Part shown: positions 13,470 to 36,049 of the stretch, piece by piece | Numbering within the stretch: position 1 is the first letter of the stretch | Layout: each line of letters begins with the position of its first letter | Assembly (NCBI GenBank): GCA_002633005.1 | Contig: NMRA01000655.1 | Location: 31,599-95,598, forward strand | DNA: 64,000 nt | Direction: 5' to 3' | Origin: Phoronis australis | Lineage: Eukaryota; Animalia; Phoronida | Notes under the pieces: model-generated | Databases searched by the model: none | Told to the model about the DNA's origin: nothing | Seen by the model: the letters and a program-made list of their open reading frames with translations, nothing else | Made by a program: the position numbers and the translations under genes

Positions 13470-15115
13470 CTCAAAACCATGTGCAGCCTATGCAGTCTAG
13501 TCGGAGTTACTTCCCTTGTTAGGTCATGCTTCATCCGCTCAGGTCGCACTGTTGCTCATAAGTGTGCCAAACTTTTTGTCTTGTGCATTCGGTGAGTACT
13601 CTCCAATCGACTTGTCGACCCTTCTTAGGAACTAAGGGTACTTGTAGAACTGCTCAGATTATCAAAACGTGTTCAATGCTTGGGTGTTTGTTTGCTGTGG
13701 GGTTGATACACTGACAGTTTCATCATAATTATTGTCAGAGTTTGTACAGGTAACATCAAACACACAGTGAATTACTGGCCATTGTGAGCCCTGGAGTACA
13801 GAAGCCTGCTAGGAAAATGTAAAAGTGACAGTTTAAGTAATTTTTTTTGAACTTCAAGAAACTTTTGCATAACAGTGTACTTTCTACACAGGTTAATGTG
13901 GAACTCCCCTGCCAAGGAAGCTGCCCCACTGTTTAATCGCAGTCTACTACAGTCCCTCCTGGTGTGCCTGCTTGGAGTTCTGGCTGCACGCTCTGCTGGT
14001 GCCGTGCGTTGGTTTTTCACTCTGCACAATCATGTGAAGAGCCTGGATATCGGTCAAACAGCTGAGGCATGCACTGTTTTACTGTCGGCCATGTTGACTG
14101 CTTATGCTGTACTCGAGTTGAGTATGAAGTGTGAGTTTGAGTGTGATTCGAGTCTGAGTACTGAGATTGGAGACCGGGCCCAGGTCAATCATCCCCACGA
14201 GTCACAAATATTAATTTGTAGTTTTGTCAAAATTATCTTAAAAGTCTTGAGGGGAATCCGTCAATTGTTATTCAATCCAAATGAGCAAAGAATAGCTACT
14301 GTAATGTTTTGTTACTACATTTTTGATGAAAAGATGAGATGATTATTTTTTTGGAAACTACCGCATCTTCACGGTATTTTTGTTTTGCAAATTAATTTTT
14401 TCTAGTATTAAGTAACTAACTAGAAATAATGGTGAAAATCAAAATTTAGTTACGTTTTTGTATTTAAATTCCTTTCGAGCATTCAACAATGACAATGCAA
14501 TTGATATACTTGACCAAATGTGAGGGTCAGTGCCCAGTTCAGACTGAGATTAGACTAGTATGATATCTCCTTCAAATACTTCCCGTTGTAATCGTGTACT
14601 ATATGTTTATTATTGTTTTTCCAGGTACCAACACTACGATGTCCTCTGTAGGTATCACGGGCATAACCTCATCGGGGGTCATGTCATTCATCAACCATGC
14701 CAACCTACCACCAGCAGCAAGTGCTGCCCGTGCTGCCCTTTCATCACTTTCCTCGGCAATGATGTCACCGGAACAACAGCTGCAGCAACTGCAGCTGAAG
14801 ACAACAACTCTGATACAGCAGCAAAAGGCAAAACTCGAACAGAAGCTGGCCGACTCGAAGGCAGCGGCCATCTTGTCATCTGGTTTGACGAGTCTGAGCA
14901 GCACCATGCCAGCCTATGCCTTGCATGACACATTGCCGTCGACACCCAAAAGTACACCGTTATTCATGACTCCGCCTGTTACTCCACCTAATGAGTCGCA
15001 GGTACTCGGACAACCTGTGGCTGCAGCACAGACGTTGCCATCGGTGCCTGAGGCTGTTGACCATCCACTGGACAATTCAATGACAATGAAATCATCAGAC
15101 AAATCAGCTGGAAAG
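13470..15115 (+). pseudogene. BIRC6: BIRC6 pseudogene, block B (exons 13470-13591, 13892-~14093 truncated, 14625-15115), from a more N-terminal part of the protein than block A
   Basis: LVRSCFIRSGRTVAHKCAKLFVLCI, AGAVRWFFTLHNHVKSLDIGQTAEACTVLLSAM and QQQKAKLEQKL...STPKSTPLFMTPPVTPPNE match remembered human BIRC6 AGRSIAHKCARFLALCI, GSVYWYFVLLNYVKDEDLAGCSTACASLLTAV and QQQKAKLEAKL...PTPKTTPLFMTPPLTPPNE. Similarity stops abruptly at ~14093. Confidence 0.88.
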
Positions 15116-15257
15116 GTGAGTTGAGGTCGCTGCAGTGTTAAACATCGCTTGTGAGAACATAAGAACGGAAATTCTTCAACTATTTATCATTATAAATACA
15201 AATTTATCGTACAGGGGAAATTTCATTTCTTCAAATTTCCATACATGTCAGAATCTT

Positions 15258-15660
15258 TAGTTGTATCCAACTAATCCCAATCTATCTCAACTTATCCTGC
15301 CAACGCCATGCCCTCTGTTGCCCTTCAACGTAGCTTAGTTGAAATTGGTTGTACCAACTAATCCCTAGTTGTATCCAACTAATCCCAATCTATCTCAACT
15401 TATCCTGCCAACGCCATGCCCTCTGTTGCCCTTCAACGTAGTTTAGTTGAAATTGGTTGTACCAACTAATCCCAAGTTATCTCCTGCCCGATTACCACCA
15501 CGCCCTCTGTCGTCCTTCAACATAGTTAAGATTAGTTGTACCATGGTGCCATCTGTTGAGCGTTGCTTGCCACACTACACCCTCTTATTTCCACCATCAC
15601 CTCAAATGGCCTATTCAACTAATTCAACTAATTCAACCAATTGTAGCGCCATCTGAAGTA
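15258..15660. repeat. Left subterminal ~108-bp tandem repeat of the KDZ element
   Basis: TAGTTGTATCCAACTAATCCCAATCTATCTCAACTTATCCTGCC... recurs at ~15259 and ~15367, then degenerates. Contains TCAACTAATTCAACTAAT, the reverse complement of the right-end array core. Confidence 0.8.
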
Positions 15661-15665
15661 TTACT

Positions 15666-16270
15666 AGCATTGCAATTGTGCTGAGATATGTTGTCAAACG
15701 TTAACGATTATCGTGTTGCCATCTGTTGTCAGAAGTTCAATCTACTTCAATTTATCCTCATCGTAGAGCAATCTTGGTGCTTTGTGTACTTAAATTTTTC
15801 ATAAATAAACGTTTTTGCTAAGATGAAAAAGCATAACAAAGACTTGATTCGGCATTGACACAAATATTTTTTTGTATTCTTATATTTATCTAAACTAAGC
15901 GTTTGTGCATAGCATTGCAATTGTGCTGATATATGTTGTCAAACGTTAACGGCTATCGTGTTGCCATCTGTTGTCAGAAGTTTACTTGAATCTACTCCAA
16001 CTTATCCTCATCGTAGAGCAATCTTGGTGCTTTGTGTACTTAAATTTTTCACAAATAAACGTTTTTGCAAAGATGAAAAAACAACCAAAGTCAACAGATA
16101 GGCTAAGTATAACTAACCCGCCAAGTATAACCCAGGAAGAGTTTTGTATAATTAACCCGCTAAGTATAACCCAAGAAATGTTTTTTGTTATGGCAATTAA
16201 AGTCAACAGATAGGCCAAGTATAATTAACCCGCCAAGTATAACCCAAAAAGAGTTTTTGGTTAAGGCAAT
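15666..16270. repeat. Direct duplication (~15666-15835 / 15909-16080) plus short AAGTATAACCC/TAACCCGCC repeats
   Basis: TAGCATTGCAATTGTGCTGA...AAACGTTTTTGC occurs twice; AAGTATAA(C/T)(T/C)AACCCG is reiterated at 16105-16245. Confidence 0.75.
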
Positions 16271-17138
16271 TTTTTATTTGATATAGCTGAAATACATACC
16301 AGAATACTTTCTTACACATCGCCTACCCGTTCTATAATGAATACCGTAATAGAAATTACCAAAACAAATCAAAATAACGTGATCATTCACAACATAAGTG
16401 TATGGCAATCTCGCTTACCCGTTATTTAGTGCGTGATCATTCACAACATACATTTTTGTAAGTGTCTGGCAACCTCGCTTACCCGTTATTTAGTGAATGT
16501 ACACAGAATATCAAAAACTGTCAAAAGAATTCAAAATACTATAATAAATGTACTAAACGTTTTCACATTAAGTGATGATAAAATCTAACAAGAATTAGGA
16601 AAAACCAACAATTTCGAGTAACATCTCTGCATATCATTCATTTACTACAAAGTGCATGAGTAAGCATTCATCGCATTTTTATTGTCTATCAAATAAACAA
16701 CAGTGTGAATGAACAAATTAAATAAACCACTAGCGGCAAAGCCTCTCCCCAAAAACGAAACCAGTTTCATTGCTACATATCACCCAGTTACTGCGACATA
16801 TACAAAAACCAATTCTGTATTAGCAAATCGATAGTAATAAACATTGTGAATGAAAATGGTTTAACCAAAAATCAACTTAAACACTTCTAATAACTGAATA
16901 TGAAGCTAGCGCTGAAAATATACATGCCATCAAACGGTAATCTAAACATTAAATTAAAGAATCTTGCAACACCTCGCAGATCGTGATCGTAATATGAGAT
17001 AAATGGGGCGATGACTTAATCATAAATATCACTAGTATAATGTCACTAAATGAGGAAACAATATGGCTGACAAATGAATTGAACTTATACAAATTTTACG
17101 TAAAACACGTCTACCAAAAGTGGATTAATTCATGACGC

Positions 17139-17537
17139 CTACAGATGCACAGAGGTACTGGCCTCCGCAGCAGTGGGCGACGTCCCATCCTCATCAGCCT
17201 CAAATAGGCGCCTCTTCGCAGGCCTAGCTGGCGTATCTGCTACTGATGTACTGTACTCAGCCCACCCAACACCATATGTCTCCAGTTTCGACCGAAACTC
17301 CTCCGCCTCTTCCAGATCATCTGGTAGAGGCCTCTTTACAAAAGTCACCGAAACCTTGTTGTTATATTGGCTTGGTTGCAGTTTCAGTTCACCGAGCTCT
17401 TCCGCCGCCAATCTTTCCATCATCGCCCTGTAGGTTGACGACGTAAGGCCCCTTTTTTTCTTCCGCAAAATCTGCGTCATGCTGAATGATGGCGCTGGGT
17501 ACAACAGTAATGCTCGTGCACACGCCATGTCCGTTTG
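17139..17537 (-). pseudogene. Putative C-terminal exon (winged-helix-like) of a DUF3987-type NTPase cargo gene
   Basis: ALLLYPAPSFSMTQIL...MERLAAEELGELKL...VTFVKRPLPDD...FRSKLETYGVGWAEY resembles the C-termini of metazoan DUF3987 proteins as I recall them. The 5' side is cut at a repeat junction (17538). Confidence 0.5.
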
Positions 17538-18196
17538 GAAACCCATCTCCCGGTATCAAGGTTCTGGTGCAAGGAAATCTAGAAAAACATCTAGTTTTTT
17601 GATACCTTCTTTTCTCATTCAAATAAAAATGTTACTGCATAAAATCAATATATAATTTCATTTCATTAACGATTTACTACAATCACAAGAACAGGTGAAA
17701 CCACTTTGAGATGTTTAAACATTTTTCAGAGACAAGGAAGCGCTAGCATATTGCTTAAAATAGCATTCAGAAGTACCATAAGTTAAAATCCATTTCTGCT
17801 GTCACAAACTTTGATCTCGGTTGCTGTGGAAGCACAGATTTCGTTTATTTTTATATTTACATGTATGTATTGCACACAAGAACCCTGGTATCCGTGATTG
17901 AAACTTTACTTTAGTTGTAGAACCTTTTCTACTTCAAGCCTTTTTCTTCTCTGTTATATCTCTTTTAAAGAATGAGCTATCTGATAATTGAGAGTTTGGC
18001 CTATCAGCGGTATTTAAAGGGATCAATTAATTATTGTATCCTTTAAATAGTTTGCATACGCCCAGGTTATGTTTTGCTCAGGTAGACCAGGACAGGAACT
18101 CGATGTGTTTAAGGTAACTTTCGCGGTGATGACAGAACCAAGCATCTCAGAAAGAATAATGATGATATAGTTGACAATTTTAATGACTAACAAAAT
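17538..18196. repeat. ~660-bp near-identical duplicate of 22248-22905, ending at a single N
   Basis: AAACCCATCTCCCGGTATCAAGG...TAATGACTAACAAAAT is present at both positions. Confidence 0.9.
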
Positions 18197-18197
18197 N

Positions 18198-18640
18198 TTC
18201 TATGGGTCTACGGTCCAAGGTAGTATACAAATTTATCTGTGCTGGATGTGGCTCCAGTTATATAGGCGAAACTGCTCGCCATTTGAAAACCAGGACCAAG
18301 GAACATCTAAATTCTGACAGTAATTCACATGTAAATATTCACCTGCAAAGCTCCAATCATTGTTATCAGCAGTGCTCTTTCAATGACTTTGAAATAATAG
18401 ACCAGGCAGTAACAACAAAGGAGCTTAAAATTCGTGAGGCTTTACATATCAGTTGGTGCAAGCCCAATCTCGATAGGCAACTGACACACCACAGGTTGTC
18501 ATTGTTGGTCTAGTTCATTGTCACTCCCTGTAACTGACTGTATCTGTGCTTCATTACTTGTTGCTGGGCCTAGCTAGGTGGCCACTGTATTATGACTTCT
18601 GAGGATGATGTTTAATAAATGTCACCGAAACATGTCAAGT
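18198..18640 (+). mobile_element. Second Penelope-like GIY-YIG 3' fragment
   Basis: ORF 18202-18513 is nearly identical to 12817-13128 (VVYKFICAGCGSSYIGETARHLKTRTKEH). Confidence 0.9.
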
Positions 18641-19540
18641 TTTAAAACCGTTGTTGTTTTCGTGAACATATGCTGTTACTTGCTATCATGGAGTAATAAA
18701 AATTTCCGTTCCTCTAATTTTTTGATGAAGAATGTATTTTCCTGAAAATACGTTTTTGCATAATCTTGGGTAATTCAGTATCACACCTTTCTGCACGAAA
18801 TCATACATATTTAATCTCAATTTGAGAGTAAAGGGTGTTTCTCGCATGTAAGAAAAAACTACACAAACAGCCTCACCAGTTTGACAAAAACAATTCGGGA
18901 AAACGAAAATACTCAAACCCGACCAATAAGTGTAGGGTTCCGGTTCTCATTTGATAATCAACAACGGACCTAATAGGCAAAGTTAGGTCTAACCGCACAA
19001 ATGGCTAAACTTCAAAAACATACTTCGCCAAAATATAAACGGCATTCCAACAGTGGATGTGCAGCCACAGCACGGCTTCTTGTGCTGGCTACCGTAATTC
19101 GAATCAGCATCCTCTGTCTGCACTTACTGTACATGTAGCTAAGCGATTCCCAACAAACCAGTCTAATAATGGCCTGTTACATTATCGTACAAAATCGATC
19201 CCAAGTAATACACTTAACCGAAAATGGGGGTCATATTTTAGTCTCACTCAAAAAAGCAGCACCGAACTGACATTTTTCTTATACCTTTTTGAAAGTCTAT
19301 GTGTGGGCTATCTCACCGTTTTCAATACACATTTCTATCCACGTTTTGAGAATAACGAACTCGCCTAAGCATTGTTGCTAACCGTAATCAAGCCAAACTT
19401 GTAGGGAAAATCATGTCTTGCTTAAAACTTAAATTGTAGCTTGGGCAATTTGTATTGTCATGGAAAAACAACAAGTTCTCAACTATAAAAAAAGCATTTC
19501 AAAAAGGATACACAATGAAAATGAATTTTCAAATACTTAC

Positions 19541-19774
19541 GGACAGTGCCGCTGACTTGTTGGATCCCGTCTGACCGGCCAGCATAGAGAAGACTGTTAA
19601 AGGTTGCTCAAATTTCTTCCACATGAACACGCTGGATTGCTTGGTGAAGTGCGCAACGGCCGCCAGAAAAGCTGGTAGAACGAACTGTGGACAAACGCTA
19701 TTGCTCTCAGCAGCGTTGGTTATAACCGCAGCCAATAGCGGAGTTGCAACCGAATCGATTTCACGATTGCGCAT
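19541..19774 (-). CDS. First coding exon of a DUF3987 (YfjI-like) P-loop NTPase/helicase-like cargo gene
   Basis: MRNREID...AAESNSVCPQFVLPAFLAAVAHF...FEQPLTVFSMLAGQTGSNKSAALS: Walker-A-like GxxGSxKS in the DUF3987 context, ending at a canonical GTAAGT donor. Confidence 0.65.
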
Positions 19775-21370
19775 GTCCGGAAATTAGGGTGCGCAAAGGC
19801 TATTGGGATTGATAAGGGTAAATGGAATGGCCGATTGGTTTGCACGACGTGTGATTTGTGTGCATTAAACTACGCTGATGTGTGCAATTCTGCCGCTATT
19901 CGCCCTAATAAGCGCCCATGCCCCAACAAGTGCCCCAACGCGTTTTCAGACTTTGCTAACGTAAGCGCCCAGCCCATGAACTACATGCGAAAAATGCCCT
20001 TACCTACAGTTCTAACGTCTCCAATTTATCAATTGAAAGATCCGACAGTCCTGAATTTGTAGACCACGAGCCTCACCGTTATGTCCGTATACACTTCAAA
20101 CTTACGCCGCGATTCAAAAAGAACGCAGAAGTTTTGCTGCTCTTGCGAGGGATGTGCCCCACTACGCGGGTGGGGACTTTGAAAAGAGATGCAGCGTAAT
20201 TCAGTGTCAGCGGCCTTGCATTGTTTCTTTCCGGTACAGATCCTCACCGGCCTCAACAGGAATCCAAACTTCTTTGTACACGTGAAAACCGTGAATCGAA
20301 GACTAATAAAAAAATCGACCAGTGTTAGCACGCGGCCAAGAAGCGCGAGCTGCATAATGTACCGGCTGTCGGCATCGAAGACATTTAGTCGGGAACTATC
20401 TATTCATGAAACGGGTAACAAAGCATCGGCAAATAATTATTGGCACTAATTTCCGAAAGTTTCTAATACCGTAAAAAACTTTTGCATTTTTGTGAAGAGA
20501 AATTATTTAACTAATCGTAATTGGTGTTTTTAAGGTCAAAATGACCCACTTCGCACCCTCACACCCCAAATCTTCCGGAAAATAGCTGTTACACTACGGT
20601 CACGCATCCACTCACCCGGCGACTCAATGAGTGACATATCGGTCTTACCGAAAAAATTCTCGAACGTTTTTTAGCAGATGAGGCCAGCAAGTGCTGAGCT
20701 AAATATTAAAACACGCTCTGCTTGACTGCTTGACTTAATTTCTTTGGATACAATGCACACCTAGATCATTACATTACTCTGGCAAAAGAACTCTGATGAC
20801 CATCATACGCACGCTTACTGTCACACACACGCATACAAACCTCAAAACAAACGTCATGTGACAACAACATGTGTGTTCCTCCAGAGATTTTTATCGTGTT
20901 GCGTGCTACAATCTAGCGCAGATTTGGACTTAATCTGCAGTTAATCCAGACTCCACAAGAACTTAAAAACCTTAGAGATGCTATTGGGAAAACTTGAGGA
21001 GGATTTCAGGTAATTTGTTGAGTCGAAGCTGTATTCTTATTCAAGAATTCAAGTCCTATCGACGATTGCGAGACCGGCAGCTACGCATTTCTCGGCAAGA
21101 TTTCGCCCTGGGACTTCCAACACAATTTTATGAAAAATGATCGTAATTTAACAACGAATTTTGATAGCAATGCACCACAATTTTGTAGAAAGTAAATCAT
21201 AATATTCTGCACGCTTTATCCTAGCATACATATAGTGAGCGTACGTTACGTGTGTTGACCCAGAACAGGTGATTGTGCAGAGGCATTATCCTCAAAATTG
21301 CTCATGTTGGCTTGGTTCTGGTCAAGCGAAAACAAGTTTTTTTCACTACCAGCCGCCGTAGAGTGATTTG

Positions 21371-21724
21371 TTACTGTTTCTTTGAAGGGAGATATTGTTG
21401 GGCAGTTTCCAAGATACGTTTTCTTGCCGCCCTCAAAATGAGCGCTGCATGCTTTATGCTACCAAGTCGGAAAGAATTCACGAAGTCGGCCTTTGCTACC
21501 AGGTCTACTAAAGTCTCTGACCCATGTTTAACGCAGTTCTTGATCCTTGGGAAACAGGTAGTAATTAATTTTTTTAACTCGCTAACTGGTATTATAGCAT
21601 GCCAGGCACACAACACGTATAACCTCCCTGTGGCCGGTTCGCCCCCACGCTTGCCGACGTACTTGTTTACCGGCTTAACCACAATGCAACATTCTGACCC
21701 ATTTCCAATATGGCGGCGTTGCAA
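21371..21724 (-). CDS. Orphan 117-aa ORF inside the KDZ element
   Basis: Open, amphipathic, protein-like sequence (LYVLCAWHAIIPVSELKKLITTCFPRIK). No family recognised and the start codon is uncertain. Confidence 0.3.
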   Translation of the reverse strand: MQRRHIGNGSECCIVVKPVNKYVGKRGGEPATGRLYVLCAWHAIIPVSELKKLITTCFPRIKNCVKHGSETLVDLVAKADFVNSFRLGSIKHAALILRAARKRILETAQQYLPSKKQ

Positions 21725-23266
21725 CTCCGCTATTCGTCAGAGAGCAAAGCACTCATATGAACAGATTCGGATTGGTCAAAACACTGCTTCATTCTCGTCT
21801 CAAAATCGCATTTAGCAATCGAAGACATGATGATGACGGCAAGGTCAGCTGATTTCAAACCATGTATAAAGGGGACACGGGCGCGTGTACCCTTTTATAT
21901 CCAAATCTCCACGAACGGTCAGCCAATAGCCACGAGCTTCTGAACGCCAAACATTTTAGAATTCTGTACCGGCACAAGATTGGTTATGGGGATTCGCCTG
22001 CTATATGCACGTTCAGTGCTGCCAGTATTGACAACATCTAAACCTAGTTTTACTGCCTTACTAGATACTCCTCAAAATATGAAGACAATTTTCATTTACG
22101 ATTAAAAAGTCCCTTTCCGAAAGCAGTGTTTTTCATTTTGGGCATTCTATATACCAAAGCCACTAATACCAACACAACAGAACAACGACCCTCAGACAGG
22201 ATTTAAGTTAGACACCCCGAGCTCCTAAAATATAGCGTTTTGTGCACAAACCCATCTCCCGGTATCAAGGTTCTGGTGCAAGGAAATCTAAAAAAAACTA
22301 GTTTTTTTGATACCTTCTTTTCTCAATCAAATAAAAATGTTACTGCATAAAATCAATATATAACTTCATTTCATTAACGATTTACTACAATCACAAGAAC
22401 AGGTGAAACCACTTTGAGTTATGTTTAAACATTTTTCAGAGACAAGGAAGCGCTAGCATATTGCTTAAATAGCATTCAGAAGTACCCTAAGTTAAAATCC
22501 ATTTCTGCTGTCACAAACTTTGATCTCGGTTGCTTTGAAAGCACAGATTTCGTTTATTTTTATATTTACATGTATGTATTGCACACAAGAACCCTGGTAT
22601 CCGTGATTGAAACTTTACTTTAGTTGTAGAACCTTTTCTACTTCAAGCCTTTTTCTTCTCTGTTATATCTCTTTTAAAGAATGAGCTATCTGATAATTGA
22701 GAGTTTGGCCTATCAGCGGTAATTAAAGGGATCAATTAACTATTGTATCCTTTAAATAGTTTGCATACGCCCAGGTTATGTTTTGCTCAGGTAGACCAGG
22801 ACAGGAACTCGATGTGTTTAAGGTAACGTTCGCGGTGATGACAGAATCAAGCATCTCAGAAAGAATAATGATGATATAGTTGACAATTTTAATGACTAAC
22901 AAAATAGCGTTTCAAGTCAAGCGGGCCTCCTCACATAAATTGTCCACTCTATATAAACCATATGTTTTGCCAACATGTGGCTGAATAATCGTCTTATTGA
23001 CTGCCATGTTTGTATTCACCAAAACATAGAACATTGTCTGTATCACGCTATATTTCCGTAGTTTGTGATAACTACATACTGGCTTGACTTCCGCAATGAA
23101 TCCGATTGCCCATTACAAACATGCGGCAATGTAAAATTCCACCAAGAGCATTAATAGGTTCATTTCCGAGAAGTTGCACTTGTGATACAGCAATTCAACT
23201 TTAGCTGGGTTGAATACCGTCAAGTCGGCACATCGCTTAATTTCAGTATTGAAGACCGCTCGCAAT

Positions 23267-23597
23267 ATGAGTCCAGCTGAGGTGCATCAGAAGTGGGTGC
23301 TAATCCAGGAGCTGATAGGACCAGCAACAGAATATCCTAAGAAAATTGGAACGACTTTCTGGAAAAAAAACCTCACATTTTGAGCGAGTGAAATTAGCTG
23401 CGTTCGTTTATGTTAACGGCTTGCCACCATTGTTGTTTTCGGATTGGAATCACCTTATACTTGAACAAACCGAGCACCTCAACCATTATCAGAGACTGCT
23501 TTCATATTTCGAACAAGGGAAGAATTACAGAATTTACGCGTGGAATGTTAGCATGAGGCAGTATGAATGGTTAGATGGAACGCCAAAATTTTACTAA
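23267..23597 (+). pseudogene. ~109-aa intronless ORF, primase large-subunit C-terminal/PriX-like helical domain (tentative); one frameshift in an A8 run
   Basis: MSPAEVHQKWVLIQELIGPATEYPKKIGTTFWKK + (shift at 23363-23370) SHFERVKLAAFVYVNGLPPLLFSDW...YRIYAWNVSMRQYEWLDG. The pattern P..I...F....H..R..L..F...NG resembles the PriL CTD. Confidence 0.45.
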
Positions 23598-24900
23598 ACC
23601 TTACGAGTGGACCTTAAAAGTAAGTATTGTCGTTCACTAACATCCCCGAAAGCCGGTAATTGCTAACACTAACTTGCAAAAAATTTCTGAAATTGACCTA
23701 TGCTCCTATAGTTAGGTACACAGTGAAAAAGCTGTTAGCAATATCGTTGTTAGACGGTGATAACATAACTGATGTTTCCTGCATAATGTGATTTTTCTTG
23801 ATTTTAAGAGGGAACAACATGTTTCTTGATTCAGTTCTGGATCCTGCACGTTGTATTTCATATTACAAAAAAATATCCTTTAAATGTGTGAATGGTGACA
23901 TGCCAATACTTTTTACATTATAACGCAAATACATTCAACACTATTTATCAATTTTCAGAGCGTCATGGAACATCCGCTGTCGAAATCTACCCAATGTCAG
24001 AAAAAGGCCTGGGAAATGGTTAAAGAATGGCACTGAAAGATTAATGCGTGTGTTACAAACTGAAGTGTGCGTTGCAAATCAGTGAAATTTCATTAACTAA
24101 ATTTGTTTGTGCAGGATCGTACCAGGAAATGATTTACATTATTATGCGCAATGCCAAGGCTCAGGAGAAGCTGTGCATTGTTTTATCCTACACCAGCCCA
24201 CTGATGTCACATTCTCTCAGACACTTGTCTCCAGCACAACCGCCCTTCAATCACCTCCCGAGGTGGTCCGTGAACTTGCACTCCTTTCTTTAATTTTACC
24301 AGTTCTTATCGGTTGCGTCACAATGGACTGAATTCTCTTTCGAATGTACATGACGTTGTAAAGTTTCCGGTTATCAACACACAGGAAATAAAAGTTGAAT
24401 TAAGTTTAGATTGTAATAGATTGCCTTGTATTAACATAATGAAGATATGACAATGTTAACTGTTACACTAATCGCACTTCATAGACTTCAACATAAATAT
24501 AACAACTTCATTAAAAGAAAAAAAACTCTTTTTAAGATGAACTCCATTTGACATAATTTATATCTTTTAGGATGGAACAAAAGAAATATTCGCTACAGAA
24601 GTAGGCCTATATTGACCCAATACAATGATTGCAATGTGGAAACGATATCTTATATTTTCTTTTTAATAGGAAAAAAACAATTTATTACTGTGGACAAATG
24701 CTTTTTAAACTTCCAATTTCAACTCCCGTCACTTGGTAGTCTTTGTTATACCCGAGTTATTAAACATGTTATGTCCAGCCACATAAGGACGCTGCGGCCA
24801 CTTGAGGGCGCTGCTAGGACATTCCTAGTACCAACGTCGCCTTATTGGTTCCGCGAGGCAACAAAGCAACGTGCTTCACGGCAGACCCTTATCAGCAATC

Positions 24901-27900
24901 ATGACCCAAAGTCGTCAACGCTTTACAACATCTGAGGATAATTTATTTGTACTGTGTTGCCTTAGACAAATACCTCCCGGTTTACCGAAGCGGTATGAGC
25001 ACATTGCAAACCTTGTCAATACCGTATGGAAAAAGGGTAGCAATTATAGCGTTCAAGATGTTCAGTGCGCAGCTGAAAAATTCGAACATTTTCTTCCCCA
25101 GTTCCATGACAATCCACTTCGCGTCAACGATGAAGAAGTTTTCAGATTGCTAGTTCAGTACTCTGAATCCAATAATCTGAGCAAAGGAAAACACCACCTT
25201 GGGCAATTTGTTACATATTCGTTCATTCCTAAAGTGAAACGCTGTTGTGACAAGGAATTGGTTCTTGCTCCCAGTACAACGGTCAACGTCTACACCGTTT
25301 GCAAACCTCCCTGTCAAGGCACGCTGTATAAGTCACGGTGCGATAAATGTGGTACCACATACAGTCTCAACTGCTCTACATTCAGTGGCGATGCTTTTTA
25401 TTACGGCAGTACCGTGACATGCGACGAATATGTTTCTTTCAACGACAACAGTGTTTTCAGCAGAGACTTATTGATCTCCTTGGATATCAACATGTAAGTA
25501 AAAACTTTCTGTTATCACATTGCATGTGTTTGTCATTTTTTCCCATTTTTACACCTTTTCGCACAATTGCATTTATAACATTAATACTACCGATGAGCGA
25601 GTGTAGTACTATAGTAAACTCCCTGGCCGCACTGGTGCCATAAGGGGGCGGGCTATAGCCCCCACTTTTTTCAGGGCCGCGCCGCTCATGTAGAAATAAG
25701 AACAATAGAAATTGTTAAATATTCTGGTCACATCACATGATCAATAGGTCGACAGTCTTAGGCCTTTTATTTAGTGCAGACGCCCTAAATTTCTTGAATC
25801 CCAATAACTGCCACATTTGTACCAGTGTGCGGTGACTAAAACAGTAAATTTTCAGATTACCGTGGAGTTTCATTTCTTTAAATTAAAGATTATTTTCAGA
25901 ATTAATTTTAAAATTTTTCCGTTTTTCAATCCCAAATCTTTATCTGTCTTGTTGCTGAGTGCTAAAAACTACTGGACACATCCAATCTGTGAATCGAGAC
26001 CATTAAAATGAGGTGGAAGTAGGTTTGGTAAAAATGTATCTGTAATTGATCAAATGTTCCACGCAAACGAAATGCAGGTTATGAAAAATGCCACGTATGA
26101 AAACGGGAGACTGCAAGTTTGGCTTATTGCTTAGAATACAAATCCTAAGACATGGCCGCTTGATATTAATATGTTCTGAAACCCATTTTGATGCTGCATT
26201 CATCATGTGTGAAACATGCAGTTTGTCACTTTTCATGTCTCCCCAATTAATATTTCCAATCGGGCACCTGTAGAAAAAACAGCGTTTTTCCTGAAATGAC
26301 ATCTATTGGTGCCAATCAAAATAAAATAATTATGACTTCATAGTCAGATTCTGAACATTGACTTGTGTGTACAATGATCTTTTATTGTAATTTGTCATTT
26401 TCCTTGAGTATGAAGTGTTTGTTGATATCTTGTGTCTATGGATGCCAGTGAGTCCTGTCCTGTCTCATTGTCAGTATTCAGTGATTGAGAGGGTGTTGTT
26501 GTTGCCCAAGAACAGGCGTGCGTTCAGTAGACGCTAGGACCTACGCTAGGACCTAGCTAGAATCTAGTCAAAGTCACGTGCTCTCATTTAACATGCACGG
26601 CTATATCTCACGTAATCTCGCGAAGTCTTGCGAGGTCCTAGCGTTACTGAACGGGAGGCAAATGTCGAGTCAACTGCCATTTGTATAACCTGTAATGCTT
26701 AGTAGTGGTCAGCAATCACTATAAATAAGTACAAAGGCAAAACAATAGACCAATCAAAAATAAGGAAGTTGAAAAGAAGTTGAAATACGAATTGACTAGA
26801 AAAACAAGTAAAATTGTCAACAGAAAGATAAAAGGGCTCGGGCAGGAAATGAAGTTGATCATGAATACACATGTCCACTTACAGTGGCACTACGTGTCTC
26901 ATAAAAATGCAAATAAACATGGTAATGAATTGTCGGACCACTGACTGTACATGTATACATTTCACGAATAATGAGGTAAAACCAATTTACAGGTTCGGAC
27001 ATCATTTCCATAAAATCCGTCAGCTGTTATGGGTCACATTGACCAAACATGCTTTGACACGTGTACAGTATTAATCAGACGTTTTGAAAAGCATTATAGA
27101 TGTCTACTCGCTCATCTTTCAAATTCTGTGTGTATGCAGTGCTATGTTATAATTCAAACTAAGTCAGAGATTCCAAAAACACTTATTTCAAATGGGACTT
27201 TCGCGCACCCAAATGAAAACGTGGTTCAAGGTTGTCCCTGCCGGCCCCGAGTGGTAAGAATTCACGCGACCTTCGCTTAATTTACTGCGCCAATGTCGCA
27301 CTGGTGCACTCTTGAATGAACACCACAATTAACAGCGTCGTAATAAATCCATGGGCTGCACGGAAAGCTGGGTGTTTGTTTCTTCCAATGCCTCTTATCA
27401 ATAATAAAGCCTTGACTTAAGCCCGTGTGATAATTCAAAACATAAATATGTCAAGTGTTGCAAATGTGAGGAATAACTAATTATTCGATGGGAACTATAC
27501 CAAAAAGTTTGTTTCCAATGTTATAGTTAATTGAGTCAACTTGGTTTTTGCTAAGAAAGAAATCATAACGATGATTTTCACTACAGGCGTCGGAAGTACA
27601 CCAGCTTTGAAGCGTATGCCGCTTGTTACAATGAAGTGAATGCTGCTAGAAGTAGAGACCTAGTAATTCCACATGTGCAAATGGACAGGAGAAAATTAGC
27701 TGACACTTGGTACGTAAAAATGGGTTGGCCTCAGTTAAGGTACTGTACATGCAATAATTAACCTTCGTGAAGTCCTTTCGTGTTTCATGAAATAACTTCT
27801 TAGCTATTCTTTGAAAAAGTTTTAACTCAGACATGAGTTAAAAGATTACTCAGTTGTTTAAAATCGCTGCTCTTCCCTGTAAGAAAAATCATCAAAAAAC

Positions 27901-30656
27901 TGTCGTTATGGCTCTCTCGACCACAGACAATATTGGAATTGTCTCAAAACACGTGTGTACTTGTGCATAAATGATGCGTAGAAAAAAGTTTTATAGCTAC
28001 CACTGAAAAATGAAGAATCAGTTCTATACAAACTGTGGATCTCACTAAGGTTGACAAAGACAATTGCCTAAACCCGATCATGGGCTTCTTATTTGTTATG
28101 AATGTTTCAGCACGAGTTTATGATTAGCTAAATTTCTTAACAAAACCTCGATTACTACAACAGTATAAAATTCCTTGGTAATTTTTTATAACTCAGTTGT
28201 CACATAATGTCGATCGTATAATTGCAGTTTCGATGCAAGCGCCTAGATAATTAGGGTATCATCCTTCAAAGTCCTCTTATTGTTTCGCTTTGCCCAATTG
28301 CTTTTTCAGGTATAAATGGAAATTGCTGTACTGGCTGCACAGCATGGACAAACTGACTGAAATGTCACTGAGATTGGTCTCTGACACTCTCGATGTGACA
28401 TTGGAACATTTCATAAATGACATCAGATCACATTTTGTGAAAAAGTGGTCGGGTCCATCTCATAAGGACAACTGCACACACGAGGGTAAACTTTTAGGTT
28501 AAGTTGAAATAGAATACTTCACAAAACAATAATGCCTATTTAGATGAACACGGACTCTAAATGACCGCCACCACTGACCAGTTAGTACTTATAGTAACCA
28601 ATTTTTTAAAACACTAACTACTTCTTTTGCTTGTTATTATAAAGTAAGACGAGTTACATAATGAGTATCCCAAACACCAGGTTCGATATATGTTTTAATT
28701 GCAGTTCTTGTCGTTCCAGGTTGCTCCAAGATGCTGGTTGTCGATGGCCACATGAAGGCAAGGCGAAATGTTTGTAATGTGCGAGAAAGTGCTTATGTCG
28801 ACTCAGAGGAGTTAGGCAGTATCAGCATTGGATGCCCCAATACTCCTAAACTAGGTTCGATGTATTGTTCAGCACATGCCGATACTGCTGAGCATGACTC
28901 CGAAGTAAAGGTACAGTAAACTTGAAATGTCATCCAAGTTTCAACTACATACACTATGGCTACATGTATTGATGTCGTTGGTAATTACTGGCAGGATCCG
29001 ACAAGAGAAAAACCATTCACAGCCTTCAAAATAACATGTCTGCATCATGCAAGGCCCCTGGAGCGGCATGTGTATTGTTTGCTCATCTTGGTGTAGGGTC
29101 TTTAATTCGTGCCTTTATTGACTATAAAACTACTCAACCACAGGAAATCAGCTTTTATAATTGGCAACCACTTTTGGTGATACATGATTGGCAACCACTT
29201 TTGGTGATAACCAAAATCCAAGCACAAATTTCGGTACTTCATCACTGTCTGCCTGTGGCTCCTGAAGTTCAGATTCCCAGTCGTACTGCGGAGCGCTTGT
29301 CCATTTTTGGTTGGACTTAAAACCCAACAACATTTTACAGCGCACTTAAATGTATTGTAGTCGGCTGAGTTAGGATGTTTAGGGTTGACTACGTTGTTTT
29401 GGAACAGAAGTAGCAGAGGAGTCATGCAATCATGCGCATGAGCACTTAACTTTATAAGCACGGATCACTGAATCATGCACATAAACCTATCAATCGTGCA
29501 TAAGGAGCTTTGGATCAAGCACACGAAGAACGACGAATACACAGTACGAACGCAATTGTAATGCACAATGGCACATACTCATAACAACGATTACCGGGCT
29601 ATGACAATGGGCACCGACAGCCTGGTAATTCACTCGGACATATGATTAAGAGATTTGTGTGTATGGTTTGTGAGTAATGTTATATGTTCCTGCGCATGAT
29701 ATTATGGTCGTGCTTACCGGAAAGAGTCCGTTGAAAAAATGCCGTATTTTAATTTCGGTGTACCCTTTGTTACATTGATTTTGTAACTAATTCATTATAT
29801 GGGAATGAGTCTCTGATCTTGTTGCATTCACTGTGTGTCTGATTTTATAAATCCACACTATTTCAATGAAACTTTCCGTTATCAAAACCTTCAATTTCCA
29901 TTACATTTCTCCACTAAGTGTTGACGTAATGCATTATCAACACTCTAGGGGAAGATTGCTTTATTAATTTGTAAGCAACTTCATTACTTCTTGTTAAAAA
30001 GCAAAACAAACTTTTCTTCCAGAAGGCTGACAACGCAGAAGGAACCAAGAATATTCCTGTGGCATTTGGCACCAGACTTGGTAAGAAGAAAAGGCTGGAC
30101 GTCTATGAAATGGACAAAGATGAAGAAGGAGATTTGAAATCGCTTACCTGTAAAACTACTAAAGACAAGTCAAGCACAAAAAAACAAGACAGCTGGTATT
30201 GTCGCAGCAGTGTACAACTGTGGTATTATAGCAAGTATCGATGAACTGTTTGGAAGTGAGAGCTTGTCTCAAGTTTACAACTTTTTAATTGCTTTGTACA
30301 AAGAGTCCCAACACTTCTCCCCTCTTTTGGCGTATGACGACGCATGCCATCTACATAAATTCATTCACAATCCGAAGCGGTGTGAGGTCACTGAAAGTAG
30401 CAAGTTCTTAGTATCCCTCGTTTTAGTAGTAGACAAAATGCACTTTAAGAATCATGTGGACAAGTGGTGTCATGAGCATGTTAATCCACATAAGGTGCCT
30501 GAGGTGGACGCTCTAAATACTGAGGCTTGTGAGCAGACGTTTGGTCACCTTGCAAGATATAAGCATGCTCTACGGCACATGAATTATGGCCGATATAATT
30601 TGTTTTTGTTAACACTTGCCGATATGATGAACCACAGCAAACTTGAAACAGTCTGA
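24901..30656 (+). CDS. KDZ transposase (CxC5 + CxC6 cysteine clusters + catalytic domain), exons 24901-25493, 27587-27709, 28310-28485, 28720-28910, 30023-30656; one frameshift in A7 at 30178-30184
   Basis: Phase-compatible GT-AG exons. CxC5-like FIPKVKRCC...SRCDKCGTTY; LVVDGHMKARRNVC...GCPNTPKLGSMYCSAH; TAGIVAAVYNCGII...ELFGSESLSQV...AYDDACHL...VVDKMHFKNHVDKWCHEHVNP...NTEACEQTF, characteristic of KDZ transposases. Confidence 0.9.
26520..26653. mobile_element. Small MITE-like inverted repeat in intron 1 of the transposase
   Basis: CGTTCAGTAGACGCTAGGACCT ... AGGTCCTAGCGTTACTGAACG. Confidence 0.5.
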
Positions 30657-32569
30657 CCATATGGCACTGCGACGGTGAAATCACAACAATTTTGGACAAA
30701 ATAAGTCGCAATATTTTAATTACAATGTCGTTGGTCATTTTTGAATGACAGCATTTTGAAAAACTGGTTTGTCTTCTGGCGTATTGCTGACGTTATGGAG
30801 CCAGTTTAGGCTTATTTCCGTGTCCAAACTACATCAAGCGACACGAGACGGCATCATGTAACATCCGAATAGTACAGCATATAAACTTTAAACGTTATAT
30901 CGCTGCTGGTATAGATCTTGCATATTTCACTTGTCAACCACATTGTTTCCTCAGTTGGTGAGATTTTACTGTAGTTATTTATGATGTTCCTGCTCCTACT
31001 GCAGAGAGCAAAGCGGACGTTGATTTTCTGACCAGTTAGACTAACGTGACGTCTTGAAGTGGCATGGTTAAATTCTGTTAAACCCCTTGATTTAAATATT
31101 GACTGTAGGTTGACGATGCATTGTCTCATTAAATTGTGAATATGCAAATGAAGTAATAACTTACAAACAATCCAGTGTACTCAAAAGTGCCGAAACCATC
31201 CGATAAACAATTACCACGACAGTCTCGCGAAAGTCTCGTTATGCGAGACAATTTTTATGAAAATGAGTATGGTAACATTTCATGTTATCCTTATGAAACA
31301 AAGCACAGTTTTTATTATTTGTTTATAACAACATCAAATTACAATTTGGGATTACTTGAAATAACTAGGGCTTTTTATATGTTCACGCATGTTTCTAAGT
31401 TTATCATTTATAGTGTTATCTTTAAAACCACAATTTCATTAAAATTGTTTCTTTTCCCCGATCATACATATAGTTATCCTGGAAGTCATTGGGTGGTGTT
31501 TGTTACAAATTTAGATATTCAGGATTTTAATGAGACATAATGTAGCCAATCATGGATGGATACTACATGTACGTACACCCCGAAGTCAGCTTCATGAAAG
31601 AAGAAATATTACTTCATGCTATTGTTTGATCTTATTTCTGTTACTGTCCACTTGTTTGGCATATAAGGGGTGTTTTACAGCAGCAGAAAAATAGAAAGGA
31701 TTCAGTAACTTGATAACAAAACGATGTCTACCTTTATTGAAGCAAGATAGCAAGGTCACCTAATGATTAAATGACCGGGAAGTTTTCCTCTCTGGAACAA
31801 ATTGGGTAAACCAAGAAAATATGCGTCATTAGCTGAAAGGTTTAACAACATCCCTATGACTTTATTCCTACATATGTTTGTATATAATTTCTTGCTTTTT
31901 AATCTCATCAGTGATTAGCATATGCGCTACTGTTGTTTTGTAGAATATATTTTGACTGTTGTGTAGCAAAGGTTCTAGTTATCAAGCTCTTACTCAGTTA
32001 CAAATGCACTTATTGGGTTGTATTTTGTTTCAAGGTCACATAATTTCGAAATTAATCGTATGAGTGAGTGAAAATAACGCTTCCATTAAAACAGAAAATA
32101 TATTTGACTGGCATAAGTTAGTTATCATTCAATGTACATCCTACACAATGATTCGCCACTTAGATTAACAATTTTTTTAAATTAAAAAAATAAACAATCA
32201 TCATTTCTCGTGTGTGGTGTCAACCCTCATAGTTTTTCTAACTTAGGCACATTGCATTTTACATTGTGCCTATTGGTGATAAGACTAAAAAGTTTATCAC
32301 TTTTTCGTAGATTTGTTGATGCGTCGGCGCGCAAGTTTTATAGTTATTCTGGCTTCTGTCATGACCAACGGAAACGCACAATTTACTCTTTTTATAGCTG
32401 TAGTTAACTTAAGCCTATTGCTCACTTTCTACGGCCCGATTTTAGTAGACTTCTAAATATTTCTACACATGACAGCTTTAGGAAGAAAATTTACCTACTG
32501 AAAAGGATTGCTTTCCTGTTTACACGAAAACAACTTTTAAATACAAATTGAATAAGCTGGGTTGAATAC

Positions 32570-35200
32570 TAGTCAAAATGCGTGTTCAGTGTCTTAAAAA
32601 TTGTGAGCCTGTTCCTTACGTCACGTCTGTTGTCAGCCTTTCGTAAGGTAGCGCAGCATTTAGTGGGAATAGTTGAATTCGTTGAAATGCGTGTTCCGTG
32701 TCCCTAAAAGTCGTGAGCCTGTTGTTGGCGTCACGACTGTTATCAGCCCGTCCACAGGTGGCGCAGCGATTAGTGGGAATAGTTGAATTAGTTGAAAAGC
32801 GTGTTCGGTGTCTCTAAGGTTGTGAACCTTTTGCTTACGTCATGTGTAATGTCAGCCCGGCCGCTGGTGGCGCTGCGATTAGTGGGATTAGTTGAATTAG
32901 TTGAAAAGCGTGTTCGGTGTCTCTAAATTCGTGAGCCTGTTGTTGACGTCATTTCTGTTCTCAGTCCGTCGGCAGGTGGCGCAGCGATTAGTAGGAATAG
33001 TTGAATTAGTTGAAAAGCGTATTAGGTGTCTCTAAAGTCGTGAGCCTATGGCTGACGTCATGTCTTTTATCAGTCCGTCCGCAGGTGGCGCAGCGATTAG
33101 TGGGATTAGTTGAATTAGTTGAAATGCGTGTTTGGTGTCTCTAAAAGACTTTAGCTGACGTCATGTTTAATGTCAGCCCGGCCGCTGGTGGCGCGGCGAT
33201 TAGTGGGATTAGTTGAATTAGTTGAAAAGCGTGCTCCGTGTCTCTAAATTCGTGAGCCTGTTGTTGACGTCATTTCTGTTGTCAGCCCGTCGGCAGGTGG
33301 CGCAGCGATTAGTGGGAATAGTTGAATTAGTTGAAAAGCGTATTAGATGTCTCTAAAGTCCTGAGGCTGTGGCTGACGTCGTGTCTTTTGCCAGTCCGTC
33401 CGCAGGTGGCGTGGCGATTAGTGGGATTAGTTGAATTAGTTGAAAAGCGTGCTCGGTGTCTCTAAATTCGTGAGCCTGTTGTTGACGTCATTTCTGTTCT
33501 CAGTCCGTCGGCAGGTGGCGCAGCGATTAGTAGGAATAGTTGAATTAGTTGAAAAGCGTATTAGGTGTCTCTAAAGCCCCATAAAGTCCTGAGCCTGTGG
33601 CTGACGTCATGTATTTTGTCAGCCCGGCCGCTGGTGGCGCGGCGATTAGTGGGATTAGTTGAATTAGTTGAAAAGCGTGCTCGGTGTCTCGAAAGTCGTG
33701 AGCCTGTTGTTGACGTCATTTCTGTTGTCAGCCCGTCGGCAGGTGGCGCAACGATTAGTGAGAATAGTTGAATTAGTTGAAAAGCGTATTAGATGTCTCT
33801 AAAGTCCTGAGCCTGTGGCTGACGTCATGTCTTTTGTCAGTCCGACCGCAGGTGGCGCAGCGATTAGTGGGATTAGTTGAATTAGTTGAAATGCGTGTTT
33901 GGTGTCTCTAAAAGACTTTTGCTGACGTCATGTTTAATGTCAGCCCGGCCGCTGGTGGCGCGGCGATTAGTGGGATTAGTTGAATTAGTTGAAAAGCGTG
34001 TTCCGTGTCTCTAAAGTCGTGAGCCTGTTGTTGACGTCATTTCTGTTGTCAGCCCGTCGGCAGGTGGCGCAGCGATTACTGGGAATAGTTGAATTAGTTG
34101 AAAAGCGTATTAGGTGTATCTAAAGTCCTGAGCCTGTGGCTGACATCATGTATTTTGTCAGTCCGACCGCAGGTGGCGTGGCGATTAGTGGGATTAGTTG
34201 ACTTAGTTGAAAAGCGTGCTCCGTGTCTCTAAAGTCGTGAGCCTGTTGTTGACGTCATTTCTGTTGTCAGCCCGTCGACAGGTGGCGCAGCGATTAGTGG
34301 GAATAGTTGAATTAGTTGAAAAGCGTATTAGGTGTCTCTAAAGTCCTGAGCCTGTGGCTGACATCATGTATTTTGTCAGTCCGACCGCAGGTGGCGTGGC
34401 GATTAGTGGGATTAGTTGAATTAGTTGAAAAGCGTGTTTGGTGTCTCTAAACGCTTTTTCTGACCTCAGGTCTAATGTCACCCCGGCCGCTGGGAGCGCA
34501 GCAATTAGGGGGATTAGTTGAATTAGTTGAAAAGCGTGCTCGGTGTCTCTAAAGTCGTGAGCCTGTTGTTGACGTCATTTCTGTTGTCAGCCCGTCGGCA
34601 GGTGGCGCAGCGGTTTGAACAGCGTATTACGTGTCTCTTAAGTCGTGAGCCTGTGACTGACGTCATGACTTTTGTCAGTCCGTTCGCAGGTGGCGCGGCG
34701 ATTAGTGGGATTAGTTGAATTAGTTGAAAAGCGTGTTCGGTTTCTCTAAGGTTGTGAGCTTCTTGGTTACGTCATGTGTAATGTCAGCCCGGCCGCTGGT
34801 GGCGCGGCGATTAGTGGGATTAGTTGAATTAGTTGAAAAGCGTGCTCGGTGTCTCTAAGGTTGTGAGCTTCTTGGTTACGTCATGTGTAATGTCAGCACG
34901 GCCGCTGGTGGCGCGGCGATTAGTGGGATTAGTTGAATTAGTTGAAAAACGTGTTCGGTGTCTCTAAGGTTGTTTGCTTACGTCATGTGTATTGTCAGCC
35001 CGGCCGTTGGTGGCGCGGCGATTAGTGGGATTGGTTGAAAAGCGTGTTCGGTGCCTTTAAAGTTGTGAATTAGTTGAAATGCTTGCTTGATGTTATTGAA
35101 ATTGTGAGCCTTATGCTTTAGTCATATTTCTCATCAGCCTTTCCACAGGTGGCGCAGCGATTAGTAGGAATACCTGATATTGTTGAAATGCATGTAAATG
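32570..35200. repeat. Right subterminal tandem array of the KDZ element, ~109-bp unit, ~24 copies, with recurring unit variants
   Basis: TAGTGGGA(A/T)TAGTTGAATTAGTTGAAAAGCGT recurs at 32771, 32880, 32989, 33098, 33201, etc. Each unit has (C/G)GCAGGTGGCGC or CGCTGGTGGCGC. Confidence 0.95.
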
Positions 35201-36049
35201 TCCCTTAAAATGTCAGCCAATCATGTGTGTTTTCTTCTTGCTAACAGGTGTTGCATCGATTGCAGGGTATTGTTACATAGGCTAATACGGGTGCTAAGTG
35301 TTCGGCAACCTACCCATGTGTGGCGCAATAGTAGATTGAAATATCTGACTTTGATAGGAACTTCAAGCTTATGTCTTAAAGATCATTCTTTGCACTTACA
35401 TGCTTCAACGCCTCCTATTGCTAGTACTTATTAGAGCAAGAGAAAAAAGAAACATAGGGGGCACTGCAATTAGTTGAACTACAGCTTCCTATCAATCGAT
35501 TAGTAGGGCCCTACCAAAGATTCTGACATGACTCCAAATTTCTAAACAAAAAAACATTTAGTCTATGGATTATAAGCTAATATTGGACAATGTAGATTAT
35601 CATTTATTTGCAAAATATGTGAAAAACTAATGTACACTCACCTGTTTATTACTGTTAATTAACTAAATGCCCTGAGTCAAAACTCTGCCAAACTTTGTCA
35701 CATTGTATGCCAGATTTTTTTGGCAATAATGTGGAACTTTTGTCATGATATTGTTCTTGAATTTTTGTCCTGGGATATGATTTTGACAATTCTAGTTGCC
35801 AGCTCTTTCAGTCATAATAGACATGTATTCAGAATTCCAGGAAACAGTCAAAAGGTGCAAAATCGTTTCACGGAATTTAGGAAAAGTTATTCAGGATTGA
35901 AATGAATAGTAATGGAATGGACAGTTAGCCATCCTGATGTACTTTGTCAACCGCTTTATTTTGAACTACTGAATGTACTGGTGTCTGTGATGACAAATTC
36001 CAGGCCCAACGTGGTCTTGGTAACTTTTATTACACGACCACTGATACTC

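Follow-up and report, generated by a model that had tools for sequence, protein, structure and literature searches.

Genes and features at the locus

A 64-kb window (64,000 nt) of the Phoronis australis contig NMRA01000655.1 contains a segment of about 20 kb, at positions 15232–35542, with matching ends and with parts of two divergently oriented genes between them, a KDZ transposase and a P-loop ATPase related to the DUF3987 family (Table 1). An earlier reading made without database searches (the sequence-only reading) had presented this segment as a giant KDZ transposon with a candidate helicase and primase-like cargo. The ends, an 8-bp target-site duplication (TSD), mirrored subterminal arrays, both genes, and a matching layout in a second assembly, G001, are observed. 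The segment is probably a decayed and rearranged two-gene KDZ transposon, in which a CxC5-KDZ transposase and an accessory DUF3987-like ATPase, not a replicase, are arranged divergently.

Table 1. Positions of features in and at the ends of the KDZ element (window coordinates)
Feature	Position	Strand	Remarks
Left TSD CAAATTTC	15232..15239	n/a	exact 8-bp direct repeat, chance-tested
Left 15-bp inverted repeat	15244..15258	+	inset 4 nt; terminus CATA-CATGTC; matching terminal signature at G001 loci
Left subterminal repeats, 108-bp unit x2	15252..15655	+	with 6 CAACTAAT motifs
ATPase last coding exon, predicted winged helix	17142..17538	-	homology to P0024 aa 406–468; RNA
Block X, first copy	17539..18196	n/a	17538/17539 probably marks the deletion in a shorter version
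Single N	18197	n/a	junction between two diverged element versions
5′-truncated Penelope-like (GIY-YIG) fragment	18198..18693	+	GIY-YIG E 1.5e-4; right end approximate
ATPase exon 1, second part, Walker A GQTGSNKS	19541..19736	-	homologs, profile
Non-autonomous ISL2EU-like element (putative)	19737..21731	n/a	14-bp TIR, AT duplication in A|AT|T, decayed THAP
ATPase exon 1, first part, start codon 21828	21734..21828	-	in frame with 19541–19736 over the empty site
Block X′, second copy	22248..22905	n/a	97.4% to X
Small ORF, ~110 codons	23267..23597	+	frameshift in A8 run near 23370; proposed PriX-like gene
Possible second small spliced ORF, speculative	23819..24328	+	profile search; longest piece without Pfam match
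Transposase exon 1 (CxC5)	24901..25493	+	Pfam E 1.1e-5
Transposase exon 2	27587..27709	+	exon model; homology to L001
Transposase exon 3	28310..28485	+	exon model; alternative donor 28497
Transposase exon 4, VDGHMK (predicted first D)	28720..28910	+	boundaries with alternatives
Transposase exon 5, KDZ core (YDDACH, NTEACEQ)	30023..30656	+	Pfam; frameshift
Right subterminal array, 109-bp unit x22.9	32576..35039	n/a	CAACTAAT motifs on minus strand
Right 15-bp inverted repeat	35516..35530	-	inset 4 nt; terminus, inward reading, GAGT-CATGTC
Right TSD CAAATTTC	35535..35542	n/a	exact 8-bp direct repeat

Element ends

The two inverted repeats are exact, and each begins 4 nt from its copy of the 8-bp direct repeat. 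Exact inverted 15-mer pairs number 332 in the 64-kb window. Apart from the terminal pair, 11 have a symmetric 8-bp direct repeat, all of them overlapping matches within one long, unrelated inverted repeat (a palindromic 8-mer). In a Markov shuffle control (30 shuffles) such a repeat appeared at 0 of 126 pairs. The CAACTAAT motif occurs in mirrored orientation, with 6 copies on the plus and 1 on the minus strand at the left end and 34 on the minus strand at the right end; one copy lies outside the element, and the 16.9-kb interior has none. Because the inverted repeat, the direct repeat, and the mirrored arrays around an interior free of the motif all agree, the left and right ends are assigned to one element family. 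The TSD, the inset inverted repeats, and the arrays at both ends were all part of the sequence-only reading and are confirmed here. Together with the transposase described below, they bear out its large KDZ transposon with an 8-bp TSD, as far as can be judged from sequence.

Zisupton and Dileera elements have 8-bp TSDs (PMC12730594), and the 8-bp TSD and terminal inverted repeats (TIRs) of the window element agree with this pattern. Kyakuja elements, in contrast, have a 7-bp TSD, CA..TG ends and no TIRs (PMC12730594); the element shows a TSD of 8 bp, TIRs, and a right end reading ACTC. The summed contig depth suggests a few copies of the element, although a depth sum is not equal to a copy number.

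The right array also contains 13 TGACGTCA and 12 CAGNTGGCGC words, which resemble CRE and E-box or CTCF-core motifs. The insertion point is situated ~115 bp past the stop codon of a transcribed plus-strand open reading frame (ORF; 14564–15239 region). Summed contig depth over 14564–15239 is ~10 times that of the element interior, and the insertion target may be multi-copy. One flank contig, which ends at 15206, differs 34 letters before its end; this would fit a fork at the TSD but is suggestive only.

Transposase gene

The KDZ domain (PF18758) is found at 30138–30653 with an E-value of 1.5e-10 (41.6 bits, cut-off 26.6) in a Pfam scan that took 62 of the 83 window ORFs of at least 55 amino acids (aa). 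CxC5, at 24829–25494, scores 26.0 bits, slightly below its cut-off of 26.9. The gene model consists of five GT-AG exons and ~573 aa overall, several borders having alternatives. Exons 2–5 align with L001, an uninterrupted relative from a metagenome, and the alignment includes the motifs VDGHMK, YDDACH and NTEACEQ (model positions 305, 466 and 527), which we take to be the catalytic acidic triad. The frame is open for approximately 413 codons and then shifts near 30180 in an A7 run, a point that follows the first predicted catalytic D and precedes the second. The earlier wording, a nearly intact five-exon KDZ transposase, is therefore a fair description of the five exons and the CxC5-KDZ arrangement, with the qualification of this one frameshift.

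No SWIM or CxC4 match was seen among the scanned window ORFs, nor a TET/JBP match among those of the element. Scans of viral contigs gave no relative of the KDZ exon. A single metagenome scan gave 4 KDZ loci of 2.0–3.3 kb, lengths too small to show neighbouring genes.

Intron 1 of the transposase gene (25590–27120) likely contains nested inserts, as it displays an imperfect inverted pair (25592–25613 and 27095–27116); a short palindromic element is also found in it, at 26543–26644. Downstream of both divergent genes there is a 60-bp stretch (17019–17078 and 30926–30985, 82% alike), oriented alike with respect to the two transcripts, which is possibly a shared 3′ regulatory element.

DUF3987-like ATPase gene

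The second gene lies on the minus strand. Its exons show no direct Pfam match, and the family assignment comes through homologs. A HMMER search of 1.84 billion representatives with the Walker A exon gave 18 matches, 5 of which resembled repeat or unrelated proteins. Among the 15 scanned (P0001, P0002 and P0012 being omitted), 8 show DUF3987 at E ≤ 0.01, one of them above the cut-off. Two full-length bivalve homologs obtained by profile search reach 88.5 bits (P0024) and 77.2 bits (P0025) on PF13148, where the cut-off is 27. P0024 also matches PHROG 2373, 'DNA helicase', at 2.4e-18 and, weakly, a PHROG 'DNA primase' at 0.0065. The P-loop gene is thus, by sequence and indirectly through its homologs, a DUF3987-like family member.

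The Walker A sequence GQTGSNKS aligns with G[FY]T[GS]TNK of the homologs, in alignments that exclude P0001, P0002, P0007, P0008, P0012 and P0016. A tblastn search with P0024 places just aa 38–98 and 406–468 in the window, the latter, at the C-terminal exon, with an E-value of 1e-4 and 47% in hhalign. The profile adds an N-terminal piece at 21733–21894, and its top 3 of 921 pieces are the three gene parts. The core from Walker B to the arginine finger, corresponding to P0024 aa 105–400, is unmatched in the window by tblastn or profile; candidate motifs for both are present in P0024. The DUF3987-type P-loop gene of the earlier reading thus stands as to family, and the layout and terminal signature in G001 (below) mark it as genuine cargo of the KDZ element, but it has no core here and its exon 1 is split.

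Transcription over the last exon is seen in RNA runs X6/X7 (18–19% of reads). In bins 16370–17594 the first-mate plus depth is 4.6–12 and 0.08–6.8, the opposite depth is at most 1.2, and the orientation is opposite to that of the plus-strand host exon at 14900–15144. This pattern fits a minus-strand transcript of the last ATPase exon and its 3′ region to ~16370.

Other searches gave no relatives. A word-index homolog search with the Walker A exon retained 0 of 350 candidates, scans of viral contigs and of prokaryote genomes showed no relative of the ATPase, and P0024 had no match among phages or PDB sequences. Contigs of run X2 show 49 differences in 296 letters (17017–17312) and 29 in 255 (17737–17991), which suggests that the species also has a diverged sister family.

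Nested inserts

Exon 1 of the ATPase gene is interrupted at 19737–21731. Excision of this insert restores the frame between the two exon halves and leaves the empty site CCAATTCG. A contig from another individual (X1 record 5) joins 21732 to 19734, with the nested insert absent. Depth over 19555–21759 is hundreds to thousands of times that of neighbouring bins, in contigs and reads of other individuals. ISL2EU elements of the PHIS superfamily produce an AT duplication in A|AT|T and carry short TIRs and a THAP domain (PMC4482050). The insert shares the duplication, the short TIRs and a THAP remnant (E = 3.6e-6, over the Pfam cut-off), but differs in that its ORFs display no match to a DDE transposase or to YqaJ. 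It is read, from these features, as a putative non-autonomous ISL2EU derivative.

The ORFs at 20032–20403, 21273–21812 and 21374–21736 sit in this insert. The sequence-only reading had counted several orphan ORFs as cargo; those in the 20032–21812 region are rejected as such. It had also allowed that the cargo might belong to a separate nested element, and this is the case for several ORFs but not for the ATPase gene, which belongs to the KDZ element. A HIRAN-like remnant suspected by eye at ~19980–20300 gave no Pfam match in three frames. The GIY-YIG sequence is likewise rejected as cargo, being part of the Penelope fragment; this fragment is 96% identical to window positions 12806–13156, and depth and contig ends also mark it.

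Another ISL2EU-like element, at 48167–51042, has ORFs with DDE_Tnp_4 (E = 7.6e-18) and YqaJ (E = 3.3e-8) matches. Transposase intron 1 contains, at 25647–25689, a mirrored counterpart of a 43-bp piece near 48167.

Mosaic structure at N18197

The duplicated block X (658 bp, 97.4% identity) ends exactly at the single N at position 18197. Contigs from runs X1/X2 were compared here, with counts referring to the matches listed; such contigs show presence, not absence. A 2.6-kb contig contains X and continues ~1.9 kb without a break at 18196, probably into 22906 onward. Other contigs stop at 17540, and one joins 22240 to 17539. X1 record 5 extends 862 bp beyond 18694 into sequence that is absent from the window. 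The simplest reading is that two versions of the element exist, a short one of 15.6 kb with 17539 to 22247 deleted, and a long one, summing to at least ~18 kb, with the whole ATPase gene; on the same simplest reading, the window consists of the left part of the short version followed by the right part of the long version.

The N itself is somewhat likely to be an assembly join of haplotypes, which is plausible because the other single N of the window, at 11016, likewise borders a duplicate. A real recombinant at this point is quite possible as well, since 7 bp at N18197 show microhomology with the Penelope copy. Both sides of the N belong to the same element under either reading. The N at 11016 (9511–12037) borders a duplicated block of 1030 bp with 93% identity and shows no microhomology.

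A more drastic alternative is that the 20-kb unit is an assembly accident, with unrelated halves joined at N18197 and a chance 8-bp repeat around them. A single N does lie in the middle of the element, with the other N also at a duplicated block, and among the X1/X2 contigs listed none links block X to the Penelope fragment or spans the whole stretch. However, the 15-bp inverted repeat and the 8-bp direct repeat are exact, the mirrored motifs are absent from the interior, and parts of one gene are found on both sides of the N. Contigs of another individual end at 17540 and begin at 17539, as if the left part joins block X toward the transposase. An accident of this kind is very improbable. The earlier concern that N18197 joins different molecules is thus borne out to the extent that two versions are joined; the ends are not unrelated, as both are of the same element.

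ATPase and KDZ genes in assembly G001

G001 is a metagenome-assembled genome (MAG) that was found by a KDZ-alignment scan of genome contigs, which gave one locus there. There are 18 KDZ matches in 9 loci in G001, and the upstream DNA was inspected at all nine. PF13148 gives three matches in two genes, each of which lies upstream of a KDZ gene and on the minus strand. A CxC5-type N-terminus together with an exon-4 match is found at three of the nine loci (L006, L008 and L010). At L006 and L010 the ATPase gene is situated ~500 bp head-to-head from the CxC5-type KDZ transposase, and the Walker A exon finds 2 matches in G001, which are these same two genes.

L010 repeats the layout of the window element over ~11.6 kb, with a short left array, the ATPase gene, the transposase gene, and a long right array; its CxC5 match, at 31.1 bits, is above the cut-off. 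The L010 termini read CACT-CATGTC and (inward) GAGT-GATGTC, where those of the window read CATA-CATGTC and GAGT-CATGTC, and the left end of L006 reads CAGT-CATGTT. This shared signature supports the 4-nt inset and the boundaries of the window element. The co-occurrence of DUF3987-like and KDZ genes that was to be looked for elsewhere is thus found at two of nine G001 loci, one of them within CA..CATGT / GAGT termini; the PriX-like ORF, part of the same proposed check, was not seen there.

Several results weigh against a two-gene element. The DUF3987 matches in G001 score 17–19 bits, under the curated cut-off of 27. At seven of the nine KDZ loci, including the CxC5-type L008, no such ATPase gene is seen. 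Profile A2, which represents the ATPase subfamily of the window, has no match in G001, so that the two subfamilies are distant. The flanks of L010 form no TSD, and the right terminus of L006 was not found. The AF2 model of P0024 is poor (pLDDT 41); most top Foldseek rows for this model are winged-helix proteins, none of them at E 0.001. RNA of runs X6/X7 covers only the last ATPase exon, with a depth of 0 at 21760–22240 and below 0.7 at 19065–19554.

G001 is a 16-Mb assembly filed as a bacterial MAG, with intron-containing animal-type DNA and several KDZ elements (C10, C18; L005–L018); the animal-type DNA is likely host DNA. A single 476-codon ORF with DUF3504 and QRICH1 matches lies inside the KDZ gene of L010 (12997–14424) and is presumably a Crypton-like tyrosine recombinase. 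Two weak matches to the lid/winged-helix exon of L010 are found in C14 and C16 (E = 0.002–0.003).

Small ORFs and replication

The sequence-only reading had also proposed a PriL-CTD/PriX-like ORF at 23267–23597 and, with it, a possible replication or DNA-processing module in a candidate partly self-replicating element. Such a scheme, worked out further, would have the excised element unwound and primed by the DUF3987 helicase together with a small PriX/PriCT-like protein, and copied by host polymerases ahead of reinsertion. Phage and bacterial DUF3987 helicases do accompany AEP or DnaG primases (PMC4889955), as well as PriCT, which is related to PriX and PriL (PMC5862659, PMC11724360). The small ORF sits between the ATPase and transposase genes and is oriented toward the transposase. 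In the ESM Atlas it falls near small viral clusters in which 34–67% of members have DNA_pol_A (score 0.92); the recognition values, 1850 and 2047, are below the guide value of 2300, and the named clusters yield nothing after PF00476 is left out.

The ORF is frameshifted, and has no significant Pfam, PHROG, PDB-sequence, phage, homolog or fold match; these tests are weak, and a PriX relation is left unproven rather than excluded. The word-index search retained 0 of 1 candidates and the viral-contig scans gave no relative. A densovirus NS3-like or a small coral protein would be another, speculative, identity. The AF2 models are poor (pLDDT 54 and 41) and without a significant fold match, which argues neither for a new fold nor for the absence of PriX. 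In the two G001 relatives that bear the ATPase the genes are ~500 bp apart and the small ORF has no match at either locus, the nearest in G001 being E = 0.76 elsewhere. No AEP/DnaG primase or DNA polymerase domain is found in the 62 scanned ORFs (of 83), a scan that does not cover the missing middle of the ATPase. PriX and PriCT domains are themselves non-catalytic (PMC5862659). A role in replication would require a primase or polymerase; with neither seen among the scanned ORFs, it is unsupported. A partly self-replicating element is accordingly improbable, and the small ORF is likely a lineage-specific passenger. A broader proposal is also improbable, in which a widespread animal KDZ lineage would have an obligatory phage-type SF6 ring helicase and, here, a PriX/PriCT-like primer-handling protein, with copying by host polymerases, part-way to self-replication.

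Relation to known elements and proposed function

Transposition of KDZ elements is of the DDE cut-and-paste type and produces 8-bp TSDs (PMC12730594, PMC11588098). Elements KDZ1-3 and KDZx1 of Cryptococcus are 6.4–10.9 kb and carry extra ORFs (PMC11588098), nematode Zisupton genes are multi-exon (PMC9297572), and Zisupton-3_cRei measures 31.7 kb (PMC9977147), for which reason size is rejected as a novelty here. The window element shares with these the N-terminal CxC, the KDZ transposase, introns, the 8-bp TSD, inverted repeats, size, and accessory ORFs. It differs in having a CxC5-type transposase head-to-head with a DUF3987-like ATPase, and in short inverted repeats that lie 4 nt inside asymmetric CA.. 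/ GAGT ends.

DUF3987 (PF13148) is related to SF6/MCM proteins, has a C-terminal winged helix, and is usually found with primases (PMC4889955, PMC5862659). One bacterial member is an oligomeric 5′-3′ helicase (PMC11724360). AgaPH is an example of the SF6-like DUF3987 helicases of phages and bacterial mobile elements. The window gene has in common with the phage and bacterial members the family match (via homologs), Walker A, a predicted winged helix, and a location in a mobile element. It is unlike them in being eukaryotic with introns, in its DDE-transposase partner, and in an atypical Walker A (GxTGSNKS), and no AEP/DnaG primase or PriCT fusion was found in the window.

AcademH and KolobokH are helicase-carrying DDE transposons (PMC10799480). 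A cut-and-paste transposase with an accessory helicase is common to these and the window element, which differs in its SF6-like AAA+ type, KDZ transposase and 8-bp TSD. The AcademH and KolobokH helicases are of the DEAD/Helicase_C (SF2) type. MuB, TnsC and IstB are AAA+ ATPases that oligomerise on DNA beside a DDE transposase, and are a possible functional analogy for the KDZ-linked ATPase; the DUF3987 family is tied to replicative helicases, unlike this set.

Giant KDZ elements, KDZ elements with extra ORFs, and DDE transposons with SF2 helicases are thus already known. No description of a KDZ element with a DUF3987 gene was found in the literature surveyed, which excluded Repbase, most subscription papers and supplements, and the available parts of the cited KDZ papers do not mention a helicase. 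In the papers found, as far as their text was available, a DUF3987/SF6-like ATPase has hitherto been placed in no other setting than replication modules of phages and bacteria.

In the proposed two-gene transposon, the mirrored subterminal motifs would serve as binding sites of the transposase, which would bring together ends lying 15–20 kb apart and excise the element; reinsertion would go through an 8-bp staggered cut. The ATPase, a predicted accessory ring helicase, would use its predicted winged helix to load as an oligomer; by unwinding or remodelling the DNA of the donor gap or the target, it would aid the movement of a long element. The copy as assembled would be inactive, since its transposase has a frameshift and its ATPase gene, without the core, is split by the ISL2EU-like insert.

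The ATPase gene could instead be a passive hitch-hiker, captured once in an ancestor and useless to transposition. Extra ORFs and the exchange of TET/JBP genes are described for fungal KDZ elements (PMC12730594, PMC11588098). The absence of a visible ATPase gene at L008 points in this direction, as does another individual that seems to carry, in addition to the full version, one from which most of the gene has been deleted. Against this, the divergent arrangement is kept in very distant elements (the window, L010 and L006) whose ATPase subfamilies are barely alignable, which suggests long retention under selection, and both Walker A-exon genes of G001 adjoin a KDZ transposase. A hitch-hiking ATPase is on this evidence unlikely.

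Few eukaryotic DNA transposons are as poorly characterised as KDZ elements. With an accessory ATPase, the pair would form a testable two-protein system for asking whether an AAA+ partner is required by a eukaryotic DDE transposase that moves 10–20 kb. The pairing would also offer an explanation for the uncharacterised DUF3987 genes annotated in bivalves and other invertebrates, which could belong to transposons. The window copy, damaged and mosaic as it is, does not represent a working element, and is valuable because it points to the family and to the signature at its termini.

Other features of the window

A long inverted repeat pair of ~390 bp with 90–95% identity is found at 38713–39102 and 56167–56529, 17 kb apart; a small repeat present twice, or the two ends of a further large element, could explain the pair. 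Decayed pieces of long terminal repeat (LTR) retrotransposons, with reverse transcriptase (RT), RNase H and DUF5641, are present at 36225–38340 and 52580–53524.

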